Below, one piece after another: positions 50-57,877 of a stretch of DNA of 57,877 bases (positions within the stretch are counted from its first letter, which is position 1; every line of letters begins with the position of its first letter). The translations under genes were made by a program, and so were the position numbers. The stretch lies in the NCBI GenBank assembly GCA_944329385.1, contig CALVIE010000003.1, forward strand, positions 1-57,877, in the 5' to 3' direction. The DNA comes from an uncultured Bacilli bacterium. GTDB lineage: Bacteria > Bacillota_I > Bacilli_A > RF39 > UBA660. The notes below the pieces were generated by a model. That model worked only from the letters and a program-made list of their open reading frames with translations, had not been told where the DNA came from and searched no databases.

Positions 50-361
50 TTGTGTCTATATATCTATACTAACACCAATATTATTGTAAATTATCCTAGA
101 AAAGAAAATGTTATTAAAGATAGATTATTTAATGATAGTTTAGATATTTTGTACTTAATTTATAAAGCTAATTATAGTAAAGATAGACGAAATATCCAAA
201 TTGAAATTCTAAGTAAAATTAGTATGCTTGATTTCTATTTAGAAAGAAGTTTAAAAAACAAATATATTAGTGAAAAACAATGCTTAAAAAAATCAAATCA
301 ACTACTTACTATCACTAAAATGGTACATGGATGGATTAAAAGTGATAAAAGTAAGTTATAA
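50..361 (+). CDS. Avd-like four-helix-bundle protein (DGR accessory variability determinant / 23S rRNA IVS protein family); N-terminus uncertain or shortened
   Basis: Helical pattern YPRKE..L..S.DILYLIYKAN...L..IS.LDFYLE..L...YIS......L......I.KM.HGWIKS is typical of Avd/IVS proteins. The 3' end overlaps the RT gene by 35 nt. The frame is open only from nt 8 and the start is TTG. Confidence 0.5.
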   Translation: MCLYIYTNTNIIVNYPRKENVIKDRLFNDSLDILYLIYKANYSKDRRNIQIEILSKISMLDFYLERSLKNKYISEKQCLKKSNQLLTITKMVHGWIKSDKSKL

Positions 362-1343
362 AGATTTATTAGATATTTATGAAAATGAAATATCCAAGAA
401 TGTTAAAAACAAGAAAAAGCTTTACAATTTTGAAAAATATAAAATCCAAAATATTACTAGAGCTATAAATAAAATAAACAATTTTGATAAAGAAGAATAT
501 AATATTTTCCTAATAAAAGAACCTAAAGAACGCATCGTCATGAGTTTAAATTTAGTAGATAAATTAATAAATCATTATATATCTAGAAAAATATTAATAC
601 CTAAATTAGAAAAATATTTAGATATTAGGAATGTTGCTACTAGAAAGAATATGGGCACTAGCTATGCCATTAAATTATTAAAAAAGTATTTAAACTTAAA
701 TAAAAAACATGGTGAATTTTATGCTTTAAAACTAGATATTTCTAAATATTTTTACAATATTGATCACACTAAATTAAAAAGTATGATTAAAGATAAATTA
801 AAAAGCGACGAATATAATTTGATATCTAAAATAATTGATAGTACAGACTATAAATATGTGAATGAAAAAATAAAAGTAATTAAAGAAAACAATAATGTAA
901 ATCATATACCTTACTATGCAAAAGGTAAAGGTCTGCCTATTGGGGGCTTATCCTTACAAATACTATCTACATATTATTTATCAGAAATAGATCACTTTAT
1001 TATTCATGATTTAAAAGTTAAATATTTCGTGCGTTATATGGATGATTTTATTTTAATAAATAATGATAAAGATTATTTAAAATACTGTTTAAAGCAAATA
1101 GAAAATAAATTAAAAGAATGTCATTTAAAATTAAATAACAAAAAAGTTCAAATAATAAATATTAAAAACGGTTTTACTTCTCTAGGCCACTATTTTATTT
1201 TAAAAAACAAATTAATAATAAAAAAATCAAATAGTGCGAAATATAAAATAAAAATAAATATCAAACTTAAAACAAAACTTTATAAACAAGAAAAAATTAC
1301 CTTTCAAAACTACTTCTGCTCTATAAATTCCTACAAAAACTAA
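327..1343 (+). CDS. Reverse transcriptase, diversity-generating-retroelement (DGR) type
   Basis: The motif series IKEPKERIV, ATRKNMGTSYA, LKLDISKYFYNIDH, GKGLPIGGLSLQ..YYLSEIDHF and RYMDDFILI matches the DGR RT pattern (EPK.R, SYA.R.G.G, LK.DI.KYF.SIDH, GLPIGNLTSQ, YMDD). Size is 338 aa and the Avd-like gene lies directly upstream. Confidence 0.8.
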   Translation: MDGLKVIKVSYKDLLDIYENEISKNVKNKKKLYNFEKYKIQNITRAINKINNFDKEEYNIFLIKEPKERIVMSLNLVDKLINHYISRKILIPKLEKYLDIRNVATRKNMGTSYAIKLLKKYLNLNKKHGEFYALKLDISKYFYNIDHTKLKSMIKDKLKSDEYNLISKIIDSTDYKYVNEKIKVIKENNNVNHIPYYAKGKGLPIGGLSLQILSTYYLSEIDHFIIHDLKVKYFVRYMDDFILINNDKDYLKYCLKQIENKLKECHLKLNNKKVQIINIKNGFTSLGHYFILKNKLIIKKSNSAKYKIKINIKLKTKLYKQEKITFQNYFCSINSYKN

Positions 1344-11508: not shown

Positions 11509-12091
11509 GGTAATTGAAATAAAAGACAAAAAAGCTCTAGATAAATTTTATCGAAAGCTCTTTTTTTATAAATCATTTATTTTTAAAAAAATATATTTTA
11601 AAGTAAAAACAGACTATAAAGAAATAAAACCAATCATTACCGCCTTAAATATTAAAAAAAGAAAAGAAAGAATAACCTATATTTATGATGAAGCATGCAC
11701 CCAAATAGATAACCATTATAATAATAAAAATATCTGTGGTTTTAAAAATAATAAGTGCTACGTCCAGCAAAAATTAAACAATGGTACCATAAATGGGTGC
11801 TGTAGAATGTGCAAATATCAAAGTAAAAAAGGATGCAAAACCAAAAACCTAACTTGTAAACTATTCACTTGCTCAGAAGTTGAAAAAAGATGCCAAATAA
11901 TTACCTTTGATGATTTAAAAATATTAAATCTTCTCTCACTTAGAAATAAAATGATTTTAAAATCAGATTACTTTTCTAAAAGAGAAGATGTTATTAATGA
12001 TTTATATATTGGAAGTTTCTTTGTATGGACTATTAGAATAATAATTAGATTAATAAATAACTTTTCCACACTAAAACGCAAACAATCTTAA
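11501..12091 (+). CDS. Cys-rich hypothetical protein, translationally coupled to the NUDIX gene
   Basis: ATGTTTAA overlap with the NUDIX stop. Cys cluster C..NNKC......GCCRMC......GC.....C....C. Confidence 0.4.
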   Translation: MFKVIEIKDKKALDKFYRKLFFYKSFIFKKIYFKVKTDYKEIKPIITALNIKKRKERITYIYDEACTQIDNHYNNKNICGFKNNKCYVQQKLNNGTINGCCRMCKYQSKKGCKTKNLTCKLFTCSEVEKRCQIITFDDLKILNLLSLRNKMILKSDYFSKREDVINDLYIGSFFVWTIRIIIRLINNFSTLKRKQS

Positions 12092-12160
12092 AACAAAAAT
12101 TTATTTACAATTAAATACATAAGTGTTATAATTGTTCCTAGTGTGAAAAGAGGGATTTGT

Positions 12161-13978
12161 ATGAAACAGAGAAATATTGCAATAATTGCCCATGTCGATC
12201 ATGGTAAAACAACACTCGTCGATCAATTATTAAAACAGTCAGGAACATTTAGAGAAAACGAAGAAATAGGAAAAAGAGTCATGGATTCAAATGCCCTAGA
12301 AAAAGAACGCGGAATAACCATTTTAGCAAAAACAACCGCCATTAATTATAAAGGATATAAAATAAACATCTTAGATACTCCAGGACATGCTGACTTTGGC
12401 GGTGAAGTTGAAAGAATAATGAATATGGTTGATGGTGTTTTATTAGTTGTTGATGCCTATGAAGGAACCATGCCTCAAACTAGATTTGTACTAAAAAAAG
12501 CTCTAGCTGCTGGCGTAACTCCAATAGTAGTTGTCAATAAAATCGATAAACCATCTGCTAGACCAGAAAAAGTTGTCGATGAAGTCATGGATTTATTCAT
12601 TGAATTAGGCGCTTCCATTGAACAATTAGACTTCCCAGTATTATATGCATCTGCCCTAAATGGAACCTCTTCTACATCTTCTGATTTAAATACTCAAGCC
12701 AAGACCATGGATCCAATATTAGATGCCGTTATTGAAAATATACCAGAGCCAAATGTTGATGAAAATGGACCTTTCCAATTTCAACCTGCCCTACTTGATT
12801 ATAATGATTTTGTAGGAAGAATCGGTATCGGTGTCGTTAAAAGAGGACATATCAAAGTAAATTCTACAGTAACATGTATGCGTTTAGATGGTACAAAAAA
12901 ACAGTTTAGAATTCAAAAAATATTTGGTTATCTAGGACTAAATAAAATAGAAGTTGAAGAAGCTCATGCTGGAGACATTGTCGCTATAGCTGGTTTACCT
13001 GATATATCAGTTGGTGAAACAGTATGTGAAGTTGGACACGAAGAAGCACTTGAACCACTTAGAATTGATGAACCAACCTTACAAATGACCTTTGGTGTAA
13101 ATACCAGTCCATTTAATGGTAGGGATGGTAAATTTCTAACTGCAAGACAGATAGAAGATAGACTAATCAAAGAAACTGAAAAAGATGTATCCTTAAAAGT
13201 AAAACAAATAGACTCTGAGTCATGGATGGTATCTGGTAGAGGCGAACTTCACCTATCAATATTAATTGAAACAATGCGAAGAGAAGGATATGAATTAGAA
13301 GTATCTAAACCACAAATCATTGTTAAAGAAATAGATGGCATAAAATGTGAACCATTTGAAGACGTTGAAATCGAAGTCCCAGAAGAATATGTTGGACCAG
13401 TCATTGAATCATTAGGTAACCGTGGTGGAACAATGGAAAATATGACTCCTTTTGATAATCAGACAAAACTTTTATATACCATTCCATCAAGAGGATTAAT
13501 TGGCTTTACAACTGAATTTATGACCTTAACTAAAGGTTATGGGATATTATCTCATGCTTTTAAATCTTATGAACCAATTACTGTAAGTAATATTGGCGAA
13601 AGAAAAGCCGGAGTCTTAGTTTCTATTGATAATGGCAAAGCTACCGCCTATGCCCTAGGTTCCCTAGAAGATAGAGGCGTTATGTTTATTGAACCAGGAA
13701 CAGATGTTTATGAAGGTATGATAGTTGGTGAAAATAACCATGAAAACGACCTAGCTGTTAATGTTACTAAAGGTAAACAACTAACAAACACTAGAAGTGC
13801 GAATAAAGATCATACTGTAGTCTTAAAAAGGCCAAGAGAAATGAGTTTAGAAGTTTGCCTAGACTATATCAATGAAGATGAATTAGTCGAAGTAACCCCT
13901 GCAACCTATAGATTAAGAAAGAAAATTCTAAACACCAATGAAAGAAAAAAATACGAAAATAAGAAAAATCCTAAATAA
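12161..13978 (+). CDS. typA: Translational GTPase TypA/BipA
   Basis: [32 protein letters not shown] and NKIDK motifs. About 605 aa. Confidence 0.95.
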
Positions 13979-48995: not shown

Positions 48996-49520
48996 ATGTC
49001 TAAAAAAGAAAAAAGAAAAATAGCTAGAATGATTTTAAATCAAAACTTAGAAAAACAAGATAAAGAAGATATTATAGATCTGCTTGCCGACTCATCAATA
49101 GCCATTGATGTAGATAAAGAAGAAGAACAAAATCTAACATTTTCAGAAAAAATGGCCGATAAAATATCGGAAATAGCCGGTAGTTGGACTTTTATCTTTA
49201 TATCGGTTATATTCCTAATAACTTGGATGATTGTAAACACCATTCTTTTAAAAGAAAATCAAATCGATCCATACCCATTCATATTATTAAACTTAATTTT
49301 ATCATGTATATCAGCTCTTCAAGCCCCAATCATTATGATGAGTCAAAATAGAGCTTCTAAAAAAGATAGCCTAAGAAATCAAAATGACTATAAAATAGAT
49401 TTAAAAAGCGAATTACTCTTAGAAGATTTACACCATAAAATAGAAGTTTTATTAAATAATCAAAATAGACTATTAAATATCTTAGAAAAATCCATTTTAA
49501 ATGATGAAAACCAAAAATAA
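48996..49520 (+). CDS. DUF1003 membrane protein
   Basis: GSWTFIFI...W...N, two TM segments and a following coiled region are typical of DUF1003. Confidence 0.6.
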   Translation: MSKKEKRKIARMILNQNLEKQDKEDIIDLLADSSIAIDVDKEEEQNLTFSEKMADKISEIAGSWTFIFISVIFLITWMIVNTILLKENQIDPYPFILLNLILSCISALQAPIIMMSQNRASKKDSLRNQNDYKIDLKSELLLEDLHHKIEVLLNNQNRLLNILEKSILNDENQK

Positions 49521-49551
49521 AGAAGCAATATAAACTAAAAATTGCTTCTTT

Positions 49552-50475
49552 TTACATTGAAATTTCAAATGGAATTTCTTTTGAACCATCTCCTGAAACT
49601 ATTTGTACTTTACTAGACAAATATAAAGATGGGCGAACTGCAAACGGATTGATAACGCTGTAGATGTCGACGAAGCCGTCTGAATACACGAAGAACACAT
49701 TACTAGAGTCACCGGCATAAGGCGACAACGTCCACCAATTAGTATTATTCTGCATCCATGTTGTATTTTTACAAATATCATTATTATCTTGATTTAACGC
49801 ATGCGTTCCACAACTACTTTGATTACTATTACTTCTTATATATTCGCTCATTGTTATTAAGGCTACTTTACCATTCCATTTCTTACTATTTTCATCATTT
49901 ATTTGATTTGCCAAATCATTATTACCCCATGTTGCTGAACCTATGCTCCAATCTTTTGTAACAATCTGTCCTTGAACTGCAGAGTTTAGTGTTTCTGTCA
50001 AATAGCTTTCATTTAAATACGTATTTAAATTGACTGGTCGTGCCCAATTATTTGAATATGATGAGTCCCACACTCTATTTCCTATACTTGCATCCCTCAT
50101 TATTTTTATTGTCTTATCTGGCTCTATCGATACTATTCTCCATGTTTCATTATTGAACGTTATATAATTATTTACATTTTTCCCTTTATAAAAATATCTT
50201 CCTTCTTCATAGTTATCTTTGTATAATCCATCACCAGAATCAACTACAGGATTTTTTTCTAATATTATATCTCCTCCTGTTTTTGGCGGAAAACAAGCAC
50301 TATAAAGTTCATCTATTGCTCCTTGTACGTCAGTACTTTTTAAACCACTTATTCCATTATTATAAGTAACTTGATTGCTTGGAAAAAGTGTAGTTGCAAA
50401 AACGCCTATACCACTAAATAAAAATGCAGTTGCTATAAATATAAACAATCTATTTTTAAGAATTTTTTTAAACAT
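49552..50475 (-). CDS. Secreted/anchored protein with C-terminal WW..SP...V...G....VRP.LYL domain (candidate DGR target)
   Basis: N-terminal TM or signal segment. VQGAIDELY motif. The C-terminal region carries an anomalous A-poor, NNC-rich patch. ATG at 50475 follows AGGAAGGTG. Confidence 0.6.
   Translation of the reverse strand: MFKKILKNRLFIFIATAFLFSGIGVFATTLFPSNQVTYNNGISGLKSTDVQGAIDELYSACFPPKTGGDIILEKNPVVDSGDGLYKDNYEEGRYFYKGKNVNNYITFNNETWRIVSIEPDKTIKIMRDASIGNRVWDSSYSNNWARPVNLNTYLNESYLTETLNSAVQGQIVTKDWSIGSATWGNNDLANQINDENSKKWNGKVALITMSEYIRSNSNQSSCGTHALNQDNNDICKNTTWMQNNTNWWTLSPYAGDSSNVFFVYSDGFVDIYSVINPFAVRPSLYLSSKVQIVSGDGSKEIPFEISM
49630..49737 (-). repeat. Candidate DGR variable region (VR)
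   Basis: Hand counts on the coding strand give 18 A and 54 G+C in 108 nt. The 60 nt just upstream have 28 A and 15 G+C. 14 of 36 codons are NNC, including 8 consecutive. No matching TR is present in the window. Confidence 0.45.
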
Positions 50476-50524
50476 CAACCTTATCACCTTCCTATATAAT
50501 TAATTTAAAAATATTATATCACAA

Positions 50525-50545
50525 ATGTTGCCAATCTAGCAACAT
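50525..50545. promoter_or_regulatory. Inverted repeat ATGTTGC-N7-GCAACAT in a divergent promoter region (possible XRE operator)
   Basis: Perfect 7-bp arms between the divergently transcribed genes 49552..50475 and 50591..50845. Confidence 0.25.
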
Positions 50546-50590
50546 ACTTTTCATATAAAAAATGAGAAAATAAATTACAAGGTGATACAA

Positions 50591-57763: not shown

Positions 57764-57877
57764 CTATAAGGTATATGGATTATTTTGGCTTCCATCTCCT
57801 CCAGTGATTTTTACTTCTGATGAAAGATATACCGCAGGACGAACACCCGTACTTCCAGAAGAACTACCATAATTAAA
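57764..57877 (-). CDS. 3' end (partial, runs off the window) of a paralog of 49552..50475
   Basis: The minus strand reads FNYGSSSGSTGVRPAVYLSSEVKITGGDGSQNNPYTL*. The paralog reads ...AVRPSLYLSSKVQIVSGDGSKEIP. Confidence 0.6.
   Translation of the reverse strand, partial: FNYGSSSGSTGVRPAVYLSSEVKITGGDGSQNNPYTL

Follow-up and report, generated by a model that had tools for sequence, protein, structure and literature searches.

The DUF6273 gene and its C-terminal patch

The contig CALVIE010000003.1 (assembly GCA_944329385.1), from an uncultured gut bacterium of the RF39 lineage of the Bacilli, was analysed over its full length of 57,877 nt (the window). On its minus strand, at 49552..50487, lies a gene for a DUF6273 protein of the type that serves as a target of diversity-generating retroelements (DGRs), as judged from the open reading frame (ORF), its Pfam match, its homologues and an AlphaFold2 model. 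The protein is 311 aa long from a GTG start codon and 307 aa long from the ATG of database gene calls. It is membrane-anchored: a hydrophobic helix at the N-terminus precedes a DUF6273 (C-type-lectin-like) domain (residues 133-291, E=2.4e-12, 47.5 bits against a cut-off of 23.5). The C-terminal end of this domain, residues 251-286, is encoded by a patch of 36 codons (49630..49737, minus strand; peptide WWTLSPYAGDSSNVFFVYSDGFVDIYSVINPFAVRP) that resembles the variable region (VR) of a DGR in its composition, in its variation across the family and in its alignment to the template repeats (TRs) of relatives. A first-pass annotation had read the patch as a DGR VR partnered by a reverse transcriptase (RT) encoded about 48 kb away at the left end of the window. 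The codons and translation given there are exactly correct. Below, fetched loci are designated by L numbers and proteins by P numbers.

In the AlphaFold2 model, which is of moderate confidence (mean pLDDT of 72.6), residues 2-34 form a helix. The best Foldseek match of this model is 9qa6 (E=3.8e-6, TM 0.43), a Thomasclavelia ramosa IgA peptidase with an N-terminal domain annotated as DUF6273 (PMC12402451), and weak matches (E ~0.7-5) are seen to the C-terminal domain of Legionella Lcl and to classical C-type lectins. A sequence-profile search of the PDB with the target protein returned nothing significant. A lectin-like fold is predicted for the protein from the literature (PMC10743442): the DUF6273 domain is described as C-lectin-like, and published DGR VRs map to its C-terminus (PMC11792537, PMC10743442).

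The composition of the patch sets it off from the gene that surrounds it. Its 108 nt contain 18 A, 27 G, 27 C and 36 T (54 G+C, 50%; A 17%), and 14 of its 36 codons are NNC, eight of them consecutive, in agreement with the earlier counts. The ratio of C-ending to T-ending codons is 14:11 in the patch and 13:112 in the remainder of the gene (Fisher p=1.7e-6). Likewise, A accounts for 18/108 nt in the patch against 338/825 (41%) in the remainder (p=5e-7), and G+C for 54/108 against 243/825 (29%, p=4e-5). For the 60 nt immediately upstream, a recount gives 30 A and 12 G+C in place of the 28 and 15 previously counted by hand, which leaves the contrast standing and makes it slightly stronger. The remainder of the gene (G+C 0.29-0.30) is ordinary in composition, and the gene as a whole is therefore not foreign, GC-rich DNA, a possibility that the first-pass annotation had raised against itself. 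In a codon scan of the whole window (15,666 36-codon windows from 47 long ORFs; overall NNC frequency 0.125), the run of eight NNC codons is unique, the second-longest run being five, and only two windows have an A count as low as 18. An NNC count of at least 14 is not unique by itself (50 windows), but the other NNC-rich regions are A-rich, and it is high NNC together with A depletion that makes the patch stand out. The AAY-to-NNY codon footprint and the depletion of A are both confined to the VR.

The same segment is the variable part of the protein family. Among the 1606 homologues of the target protein, an alignment of 27 (56-78% identity) shows variation confined to the stretch WWTLSPxAGxSxxVFxVxSxG(x12)AVRP and good conservation elsewhere; within the stretch, residues at x vary essentially at random inside a fixed frame. 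This pattern is as would be expected of a DGR VR. The patch also aligns to the TRs of a DGR family in relatives, here termed type B, for which TR/VR pairs are established. By homology to three of these TRs (L248, L242 and L227), its templated part runs from TTGTCGCCT (49728) to ~49630. In the alignment with the L242 TR, the window codons GGC TTC GTC GAC ATC TAC AGC lie over GGC AAC GTC AAC AAC AAC AAC, and 18 of the 27 mismatches over 84 aligned nt fall at TR adenines. The patch is therefore very probably of DGR origin.

Type-B retroelements of relatives and the search for a template

The type-B cassette is best seen in L187 (the same locus as L248) of the genome BRZ_EQ__bin60, where the order is target, TR, MutS-I-like ORF, avd and RT. 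The target, 300 aa long, is of the same family as the window protein and has the VR peptide WWWTLSPYSGTSSYVFDVSDYNGSFSYNDAYFTFAVRP; the TR and VR differ at 19 positions, 17 of which are TR adenines. The ORF between the TR and avd (L187 9242-9652) matches Pfam MutS_I (1.1e-7), in agreement with the 'MSL' accessory class, and the layout corresponds to 'architecture D' (PMC5758913). The L187 RT is 44-47% identical to the window RT, which is of a second type, A. Both types occur in BRZ_EQ__bin60, which carries a type-A RT (L122) in addition to that of L187.

A search with the family alignment returned 523 relatives from a handful of genomes. Among the best 80 of these 523, 16 lie in the 1.52-Mb HiFi genome OZ007022.1 and 19 in BRZ_EQ__bin60, dispersed among housekeeping genes. 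An RT is present within 10 kb of only one of 76 paralogue loci, and orphan status is the norm for these genes.

Several of these remote copies retain the relation to a TR that is characteristic of DGRs. In the genome BRZ_CL__bin38, the RT-proximal TR (L188 8318-8980) has a TnpB-like fragment fused to it and no target beside it, which means that trans-targeting occurs in this system. Copies of this TR that lack an RT follow two targets on other contigs: L242 11043-11229, identical over the 112 nt compared, and L253 11058-11242, which is 98.9% identical to the L242 copy. The mismatches between VR and TR fall at A in 20/21 cases in L242, 18/19 in L253 and 18/18 in L249 (20/21, 21/24 and 19/19 by local blastn), and no TR or RT was found near L249 in the fetched flanks (3.3 kb upstream, 10 kb downstream). 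In the ~350 kb fetched from OZ007022.1, only truncated remnants of a type-B TR were found, one of 62 nt in L227 (11071-11132) and a shorter one in L245. A paralogue precedes the L227 remnant, and two tyrosine-recombinase (Phage_integrase) genes (11821-13450) come after it. Several VRs of OZ007022.1 match the 62-nt remnant with mostly A-specific mismatches (for example, 11/11 in L223).

For the patch itself, no TR partner is present on the 57,877-nt contig: the best ungapped match is 33/60, a repeat finder returned nothing, and the TRs of relatives match only the VR itself. The 3′ flank of the window gene has no TR copy; in L227, L242, L248 and L253, a full or truncated copy lies ~130-145 nt past the target gene. 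Patterns built from the scaffold positions of the VR and TR gave 0 matches in genome, metagenome and viral contig collections. The VR of the patch was itself unmatched there, so the species is not represented in these collections and the absence of a TR from them is uninformative. A generic type-B TR pattern likewise gave 0 matches in the viral and metagenome collections, and a protein search with a hypothetical TR-encoded peptide returned one unrelated 61-aa match. Two further patterns were discarded. A fully degenerate one, allowing each VR base or A, matched poly-A runs, and one starting at TGGTGGACG matched only two VRs in OZ007022.1; the latter could not have found a TR because the TRs of the type-B family start at GTTGTCGCC. 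A literature search for DGRs in RF39, Tenericutes or Erysipelotrichaceae found nothing relevant.

Strain invariance and the state of the patch

Strain-level hypervariability, on which the first-pass annotation had let its reading depend, is not seen in the patch among nine protein variants and four nucleotide sequences. In the 90%-identity cluster of the window protein (nine members), ~13 positions differ outside the patch and none of the 36 residues within it. At the nucleotide level, the 936-nt gene varies at 11 sites among four sequences from different samples, and the 108-nt patch contains none of them. Chance alone predicts ~1.3-1.7 changes in the patch, and a count of zero shows a lack of hypervariability rather than significant conservation. 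A positive control is provided by the type-A target of OZ007022.1 (P0161), which differs from its cluster mate P0162 at nine residues, all of them in the VR; in the third member of this cluster the contig breaks at the VR. Current activity of the patch is therefore not supported by the strain data. All sampled strains share one allele, and the VR is accordingly a dormant one, a recent fossil, or one that is rewritten rarely at most. As a separate observation, two strains (L209 and L210) have a whole-codon change, CAG to TTT (Q to F), at 49750-49752, four codons upstream of the WW that opens the patch; this change looks like the edge of a recombination or conversion tract rather than a point mutation.

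The codon composition of paralogue VRs provides a scale on which the patch can be placed. Across 50 paralogue VRs, the NNC fraction falls from 0.56 to 0.03 and G+C from 0.68 to 0.29, with NNT rising as NNC falls, a gradient that corresponds to the drift expected at a genomic G+C of 28% after the rewriting of a VR has stopped. Where a VR differs from a TR of its own genome by A-only mismatches, a label assigned per locus from local alignments, the NNC fraction is 0.46-0.54. The window VR lies just below this range (NNC 0.39, NNT 0.31, G+C 0.50). Its 3′ codons from AVRP onward (GCA GTT CGC CCA TCT TTA) are AT-shifted relative to the GC-rich GCG GTC CGY CCN common to the TRs and the VRs that match them. 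At the 3′ end, where an initiation of mutagenic homing (IMH) sequence identical between VR and TR would be expected, the window has GCAGTTCGCCCATCT where the TRs and matching VRs of relatives have GCGGTCCGYCCN, a difference that is suggestive only. Against foreign TRs, the window VR has 19-21 mismatches at A and 15-18 at other bases, 11 of the latter being GC-to-AT, and these give a hint only of some AT drift. The number of non-A mismatches was considered as a sign of decay and rejected on calibration: VRs that match the TR of their own genome have 0-2 non-A mismatches to it and 9-16 to the TR of another genome.

On balance, the patch is probably the VR of a type-B DGR, carried by a remote or orphan DUF6273 paralogue and currently static. 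We infer that writing took place in the lineage of the window and that it has since ceased.

Several points weigh against this reading. The central hallmark of a DGR, a TR in the same genome that differs from the VR at adenines only, was not seen for the window VR in the portion of the genome examined, which is 57.9 kb on one contig; a cognate TR may lie elsewhere in the genome. Because 9-16 non-A mismatches are usual against foreign TRs, the 15-18 of the window VR do not prove decay. The sampled strains are close (11 sites in 936 nt), and their invariance is evidence of no hypervariation, not of long-term fixity. Slow or episodic activity would look like the invariance that is observed. Indeed, the VRs of two type-B remote targets of BRZ_CL__bin38, which have A-only mismatches to their TR, are also identical between two sampled variants, so that type B may commonly show low or episodic activity. 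Finally, the complete genome OZ007022.1 has fresh-looking B-type VRs and yet only a type-A RT was retrieved from it, so a type-A RT may act on B-type templates.

In a possible, though doubtful, alternative, the patch is a live target, rewritten in trans from a type-B cassette (RT ~44% identical, MSL and avd) or a dispersed TR elsewhere in the genome, but rarely enough for the sampled strains to share one allele. This alternative is consistent with the remote VRs of relatives in which all mismatches fall at A (L249 and L223), with the coexistence of type-A and type-B RTs in genomes such as BRZ_EQ__bin60, with NNC and G+C values just under those of VRs that match their own TR, and with non-A mismatches to foreign TRs that are comparable to those of own-TR-matching VRs from other genomes. 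It accords less well with the complete lack of variation in the nine proteins and four nucleotide sequences, when the type-A control varies in its VR and nowhere else, with the AT shift from AVRP onward, and with the failure to find a TR on the contig or in the collections, in which, as noted above, the species is not represented.

The patch might also have been imported by recombination or gene conversion from a DGR-diversified paralogue or allele instead of being written in place, which we regard as unlikely. The family is mosaic: P0002 equals the window protein over its first ~110 residues and then has a C-terminal half common to P0006 and P0012, P0140 has a wholly different C-terminal cassette although it lies inside a 90% cluster, and P0158 and P0159 differ in a mid-protein block. 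The CAG-to-TTT change just upstream of the patch and the absence of the gene from a syntenic site (L260, below) are in line with such exchange. However, no donor with the VR of the patch was found among the 1606 homologues, the VR sequence being specific to the 90% cluster, and the ultimate source of the composition would still be a DGR.

The surroundings of the gene are chromosomal. Downstream lie a convergent DUF1003 gene and then addA-like and addB-like genes, and upstream lie helix-turn-helix (HTH), Band_7 and Tim44-like genes. The 3′ flank of the target gene (49518..49551, minus strand) contains, on reading of the sequence, a short inverted repeat, AAAGAAGCAAT ... ATTGCTTCTTT, followed by T's, and abuts the DUF1003 gene. 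In L255 and L243, the copy at the syntenic position shares 53-56% identity with the window gene, against 87-98% for the flanking genes. In L260 (E0_DP__bin178, ~630-750), the region syntenic to 49520-50582 has the DUF1003 and HTH genes ~120 nt apart and lacks the DUF6273 gene. The 3′ end of a second DUF6273 paralogue (...FNYGSSSGSTGVRPAVYLSSEVKITGGDGSQNNPYTL*) is found at 57764..57877 on the minus strand (tblastn E=7e-5 and translation), with no TR or RT further downstream. At its right end the contig stops inside the VR of this paralogue, as happens when assemblies break at repeated or heterogeneous VRs.

The left-end cassette, a proposed mechanism and known systems

The RT and Avd-like genes that the first-pass annotation reported at 50-1343 are real. 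The RT gene (327..1343, plus strand; RVT_1, 60 bits) encodes a DGR-clade RT of cassette type A with relatives that have TR/VR pairs, and the avd gene (78..361, plus strand) is bAvd-like, its 39.1 bits being just under the Pfam cut-off of 40. With the window RT, 80 loci were found, and self-comparison of 89 sequences (these 80 RT loci, eight target-homologue loci and the window) revealed repeat pairs with mismatches at the adenines of one copy in 50. The nearest RTs are those of L121 (93% identical; in OZ007022.1), L122 and L124 (90%) and L123 (80%). In these four loci, the cassette order is target, TR, 116-aa ORF, avd and RT, followed by rpsF-ssb-rpsR as in the window; the 116-aa ORF (L121 9354-9704) has no significant Pfam match. 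These four, the nearest relatives with detectable pairs, have TRs and VRs that encode EWLQAP...AVRPVLYL, unlike the peptide type of the patch, and the L121 TR gives chance matches only in the window. The patch thus lies in a genome with a DGR-clade RT, though the TR that belongs to this RT's type in relatives is a different one.

The window cassette is incomplete on the contig. Homology to L121, L122 and L124 starts at nt 77-78, so avd lacks ~18 N-terminal codons, and no upstream ORF, TR, target or MSL-like gene of the cassette is present on the contig. An independent Logan contig with an identical RT (L001) ends within ~20 nt of the same point. The break between avd and nt 1-77 could be due to an insertion, a rearrangement or an assembly artefact; that nt 1-77 are the end of an insertion sequence is not supported, since nothing similar turned up elsewhere in the window or among the more than 200 loci fetched. 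The RT has an intact ORF. Its dN/dS ratio against L121 (0.115) is similar to that of neighbouring housekeeping genes, which indicates purifying selection and speaks against broad decay, leaving two substitutions at invariant positions that stand out: the window has IGGLSLQ and GFTSLG (residues ~209 and ~286), whereas S and F occupy these positions in each of six aligned relatives (47-93% identical), one of them the type-B RT. At the first motif, the six relatives read ..S/T-S-Q. A separate feature of this cassette is its patchy similarity to that of L121. Between window 78-1343 and L121 9752-11017, positions 78-418 are 100% identical, the differences in the RT are patchy, and the flanking housekeeping DNA is ~85% identical, which suggests that the DGR cassette was recently exchanged, or recombined as a mosaic, between species.

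It is thus the choice of partner, not the recognition of a VR, in which the first-pass annotation appears to have erred. The VR footprint is borne out by the family frame, the L187/L248 pair and the TR alignment, whereas the window RT is 44-47% identical to the type-B RT and its relatives use EWLQAP-type TRs. A partnership between the patch and an RT 48 kb away is improbable, and the specific model in which the patch is written by the avd/RT pair at 50-1343 from a TR just left of coordinate 1 is distinctly so. In its favour, the clade of this RT is the one in which 50 of the 89 scanned sequences have A-specific TR/VR pairs, the TR lies upstream of avd in relatives of the cassette, DGR targets tens of kb from their RT are documented (PMC5758913), and OZ007022.1 has fresh-looking B-type VRs although only a type-A RT was retrieved from it. 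Against it, the TR of the four close relatives encodes APNASNSSNAAKLNSSGYVNG...AVRP and does not align to the patch beyond the 3′ AVRP codons, avd lacks ~18 codons on the contig and nt 1-77 are unrelated to the cassette, and in the RT the conserved S of the ...SQ motif is replaced by L and the second F of GFTFLG by S. That no DGR was involved, and that ordinary diversifying selection on a binding loop left C-ending codons by chance, is very unlikely: Y-, S-, D-, G- and N-rich binding loops are common in surface lectins and no TR is seen for the window VR, but selection on amino acids leaves unexplained a synonymous choice in which GAC occurs three times and GAT never, TTC three times and TTT once, and ATC twice and ATT never, and the non-variable nucleotides of the patch match the TRs of relatives.

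Under the reading of the patch as a static type-B VR, a B-type, AAY-rich TR (TTG TCG CCT AAT .. .. AAC TCT AAC AAC GTG TTC AAY GTG ... GGC AAC GTC AAC AAC AAC AAC ... GCG GTC CGY CC) would have been transcribed, and the transcript reverse-transcribed with adenine-specific errors. The mutated copy would then have been placed, by mutagenic retrohoming, into the C-terminal face of a membrane-anchored, DUF6273 lectin-like protein. The window gene, a member of a large family of dispersed paralogues, would be a remote or orphan copy that adjoins neither TR nor RT, and its template would differ from that of the RT/avd pair at the left end, a type-A cassette that is incomplete on the contig.

A broader picture may be entertained, though only tentatively. 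In it, these uncultured gut Bacilli, with small genomes of ~1.5 Mb, would keep at least 16-19 dispersed, membrane-anchored, lectin-like DUF6273 paralogues, written in trans by one or two DGR cassettes via dispersed TR copies. The copies would cycle between 'live' (A-only mismatches, NNC ~0.5), 'dormant' and 'fossil' (NNC down to 0.03) states, and the window VR would be recently written or still writable. If this were true, VR codon composition would be a clock for the time since the last homing.

Taken alone, the patch is one more DGR-type VR in a known target domain of an uncultured gut bacterium. It illustrates that the footprint of a DGR is recognisable from a patch poor in A and rich in NNC codons even where the TR is missing, and that a nearby DGR RT is not to be presumed the partner of a VR. 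Of more interest is what the analysis revealed along the way about this clade: its paralogues are greatly expanded, its TR copies are dispersed, and its VRs form a gradient in composition. With dozens of paralogues to each 1.5-Mb genome, with remote VRs, RT-less TR copies and VRs that range from fresh to fully eroded, these relatives bear on how DGR targets arise, are serviced in trans and are abandoned, and could be worth a study of their own.

The inferred mechanism is that of the prototype DGR, Mtd/bRT/Avd of Bordetella phage BPP-1, in which adenine-specific mutagenesis during reverse transcription of the TR is followed by homing into a VR at the C-terminus of a lectin-fold protein. No sequence relationship exists between the protein families, however, and unlike in BPP-1, no IMH or hairpin can be defined for the window VR without its TR. 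In architecture D DGRs, which include that of Legionella (PMC5758913), MSL, avd and RT occur together, as in the L187 cassette order. The window keeps the avd-RT part of a related cassette, but no MSL-like gene, no TR and no 5′ end of avd accompany it on the contig. The Legionella DGR target is a lipoprotein with a different lectin-type domain, unlike the window protein.

In its domain, the window protein is closest to the DUF6273 targets of DGRs in phages and prophages of gut Firmicutes, such as the Faecalibacterium prophages Lelie, Roos and Pioen and the 'tentaclin' phages nd4 and nd12 (PMC11792537, PMC10743442). They share the Pfam domain, the AAY-to-NNY footprint and, as predicted for the window protein, a C-lectin-like scaffold, and in the Faecalibacterium prophages the VR is likewise located at the C-terminal end of DUF6273. 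In contrast, the phage targets are tail or decoration proteins encoded in one cassette along with TR and RT, whereas the window gene is chromosomal among housekeeping genes (addAB, DUF1003, Band_7), encodes a membrane-anchored protein, has no local TR or RT, and is one of a family of which at least 16 members were detected in one genome.

In its organisation, the system resembles that of Treponema denticola and other cellular DGRs with remote targets (PMC4891356, PMC5758913), in which one cassette diversifies several non-adjacent lectin-fold surface proteins in trans, as L249, L242 and L253 relate to the L188 TR in relatives of the window. It differs from the T. denticola DGR in that no TR was found for the window VR on the contig, and the type-B cassettes of relatives use a MutS-I-like gene and avd, unlike the Treponema cassette (HRDC). 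The scale is also different: the maximum reported in the published survey is seven non-adjacent targets (PMC4891356, PMC5758913), whereas at least 16-19 paralogues are present per genome here, most of them no longer matching a TR.

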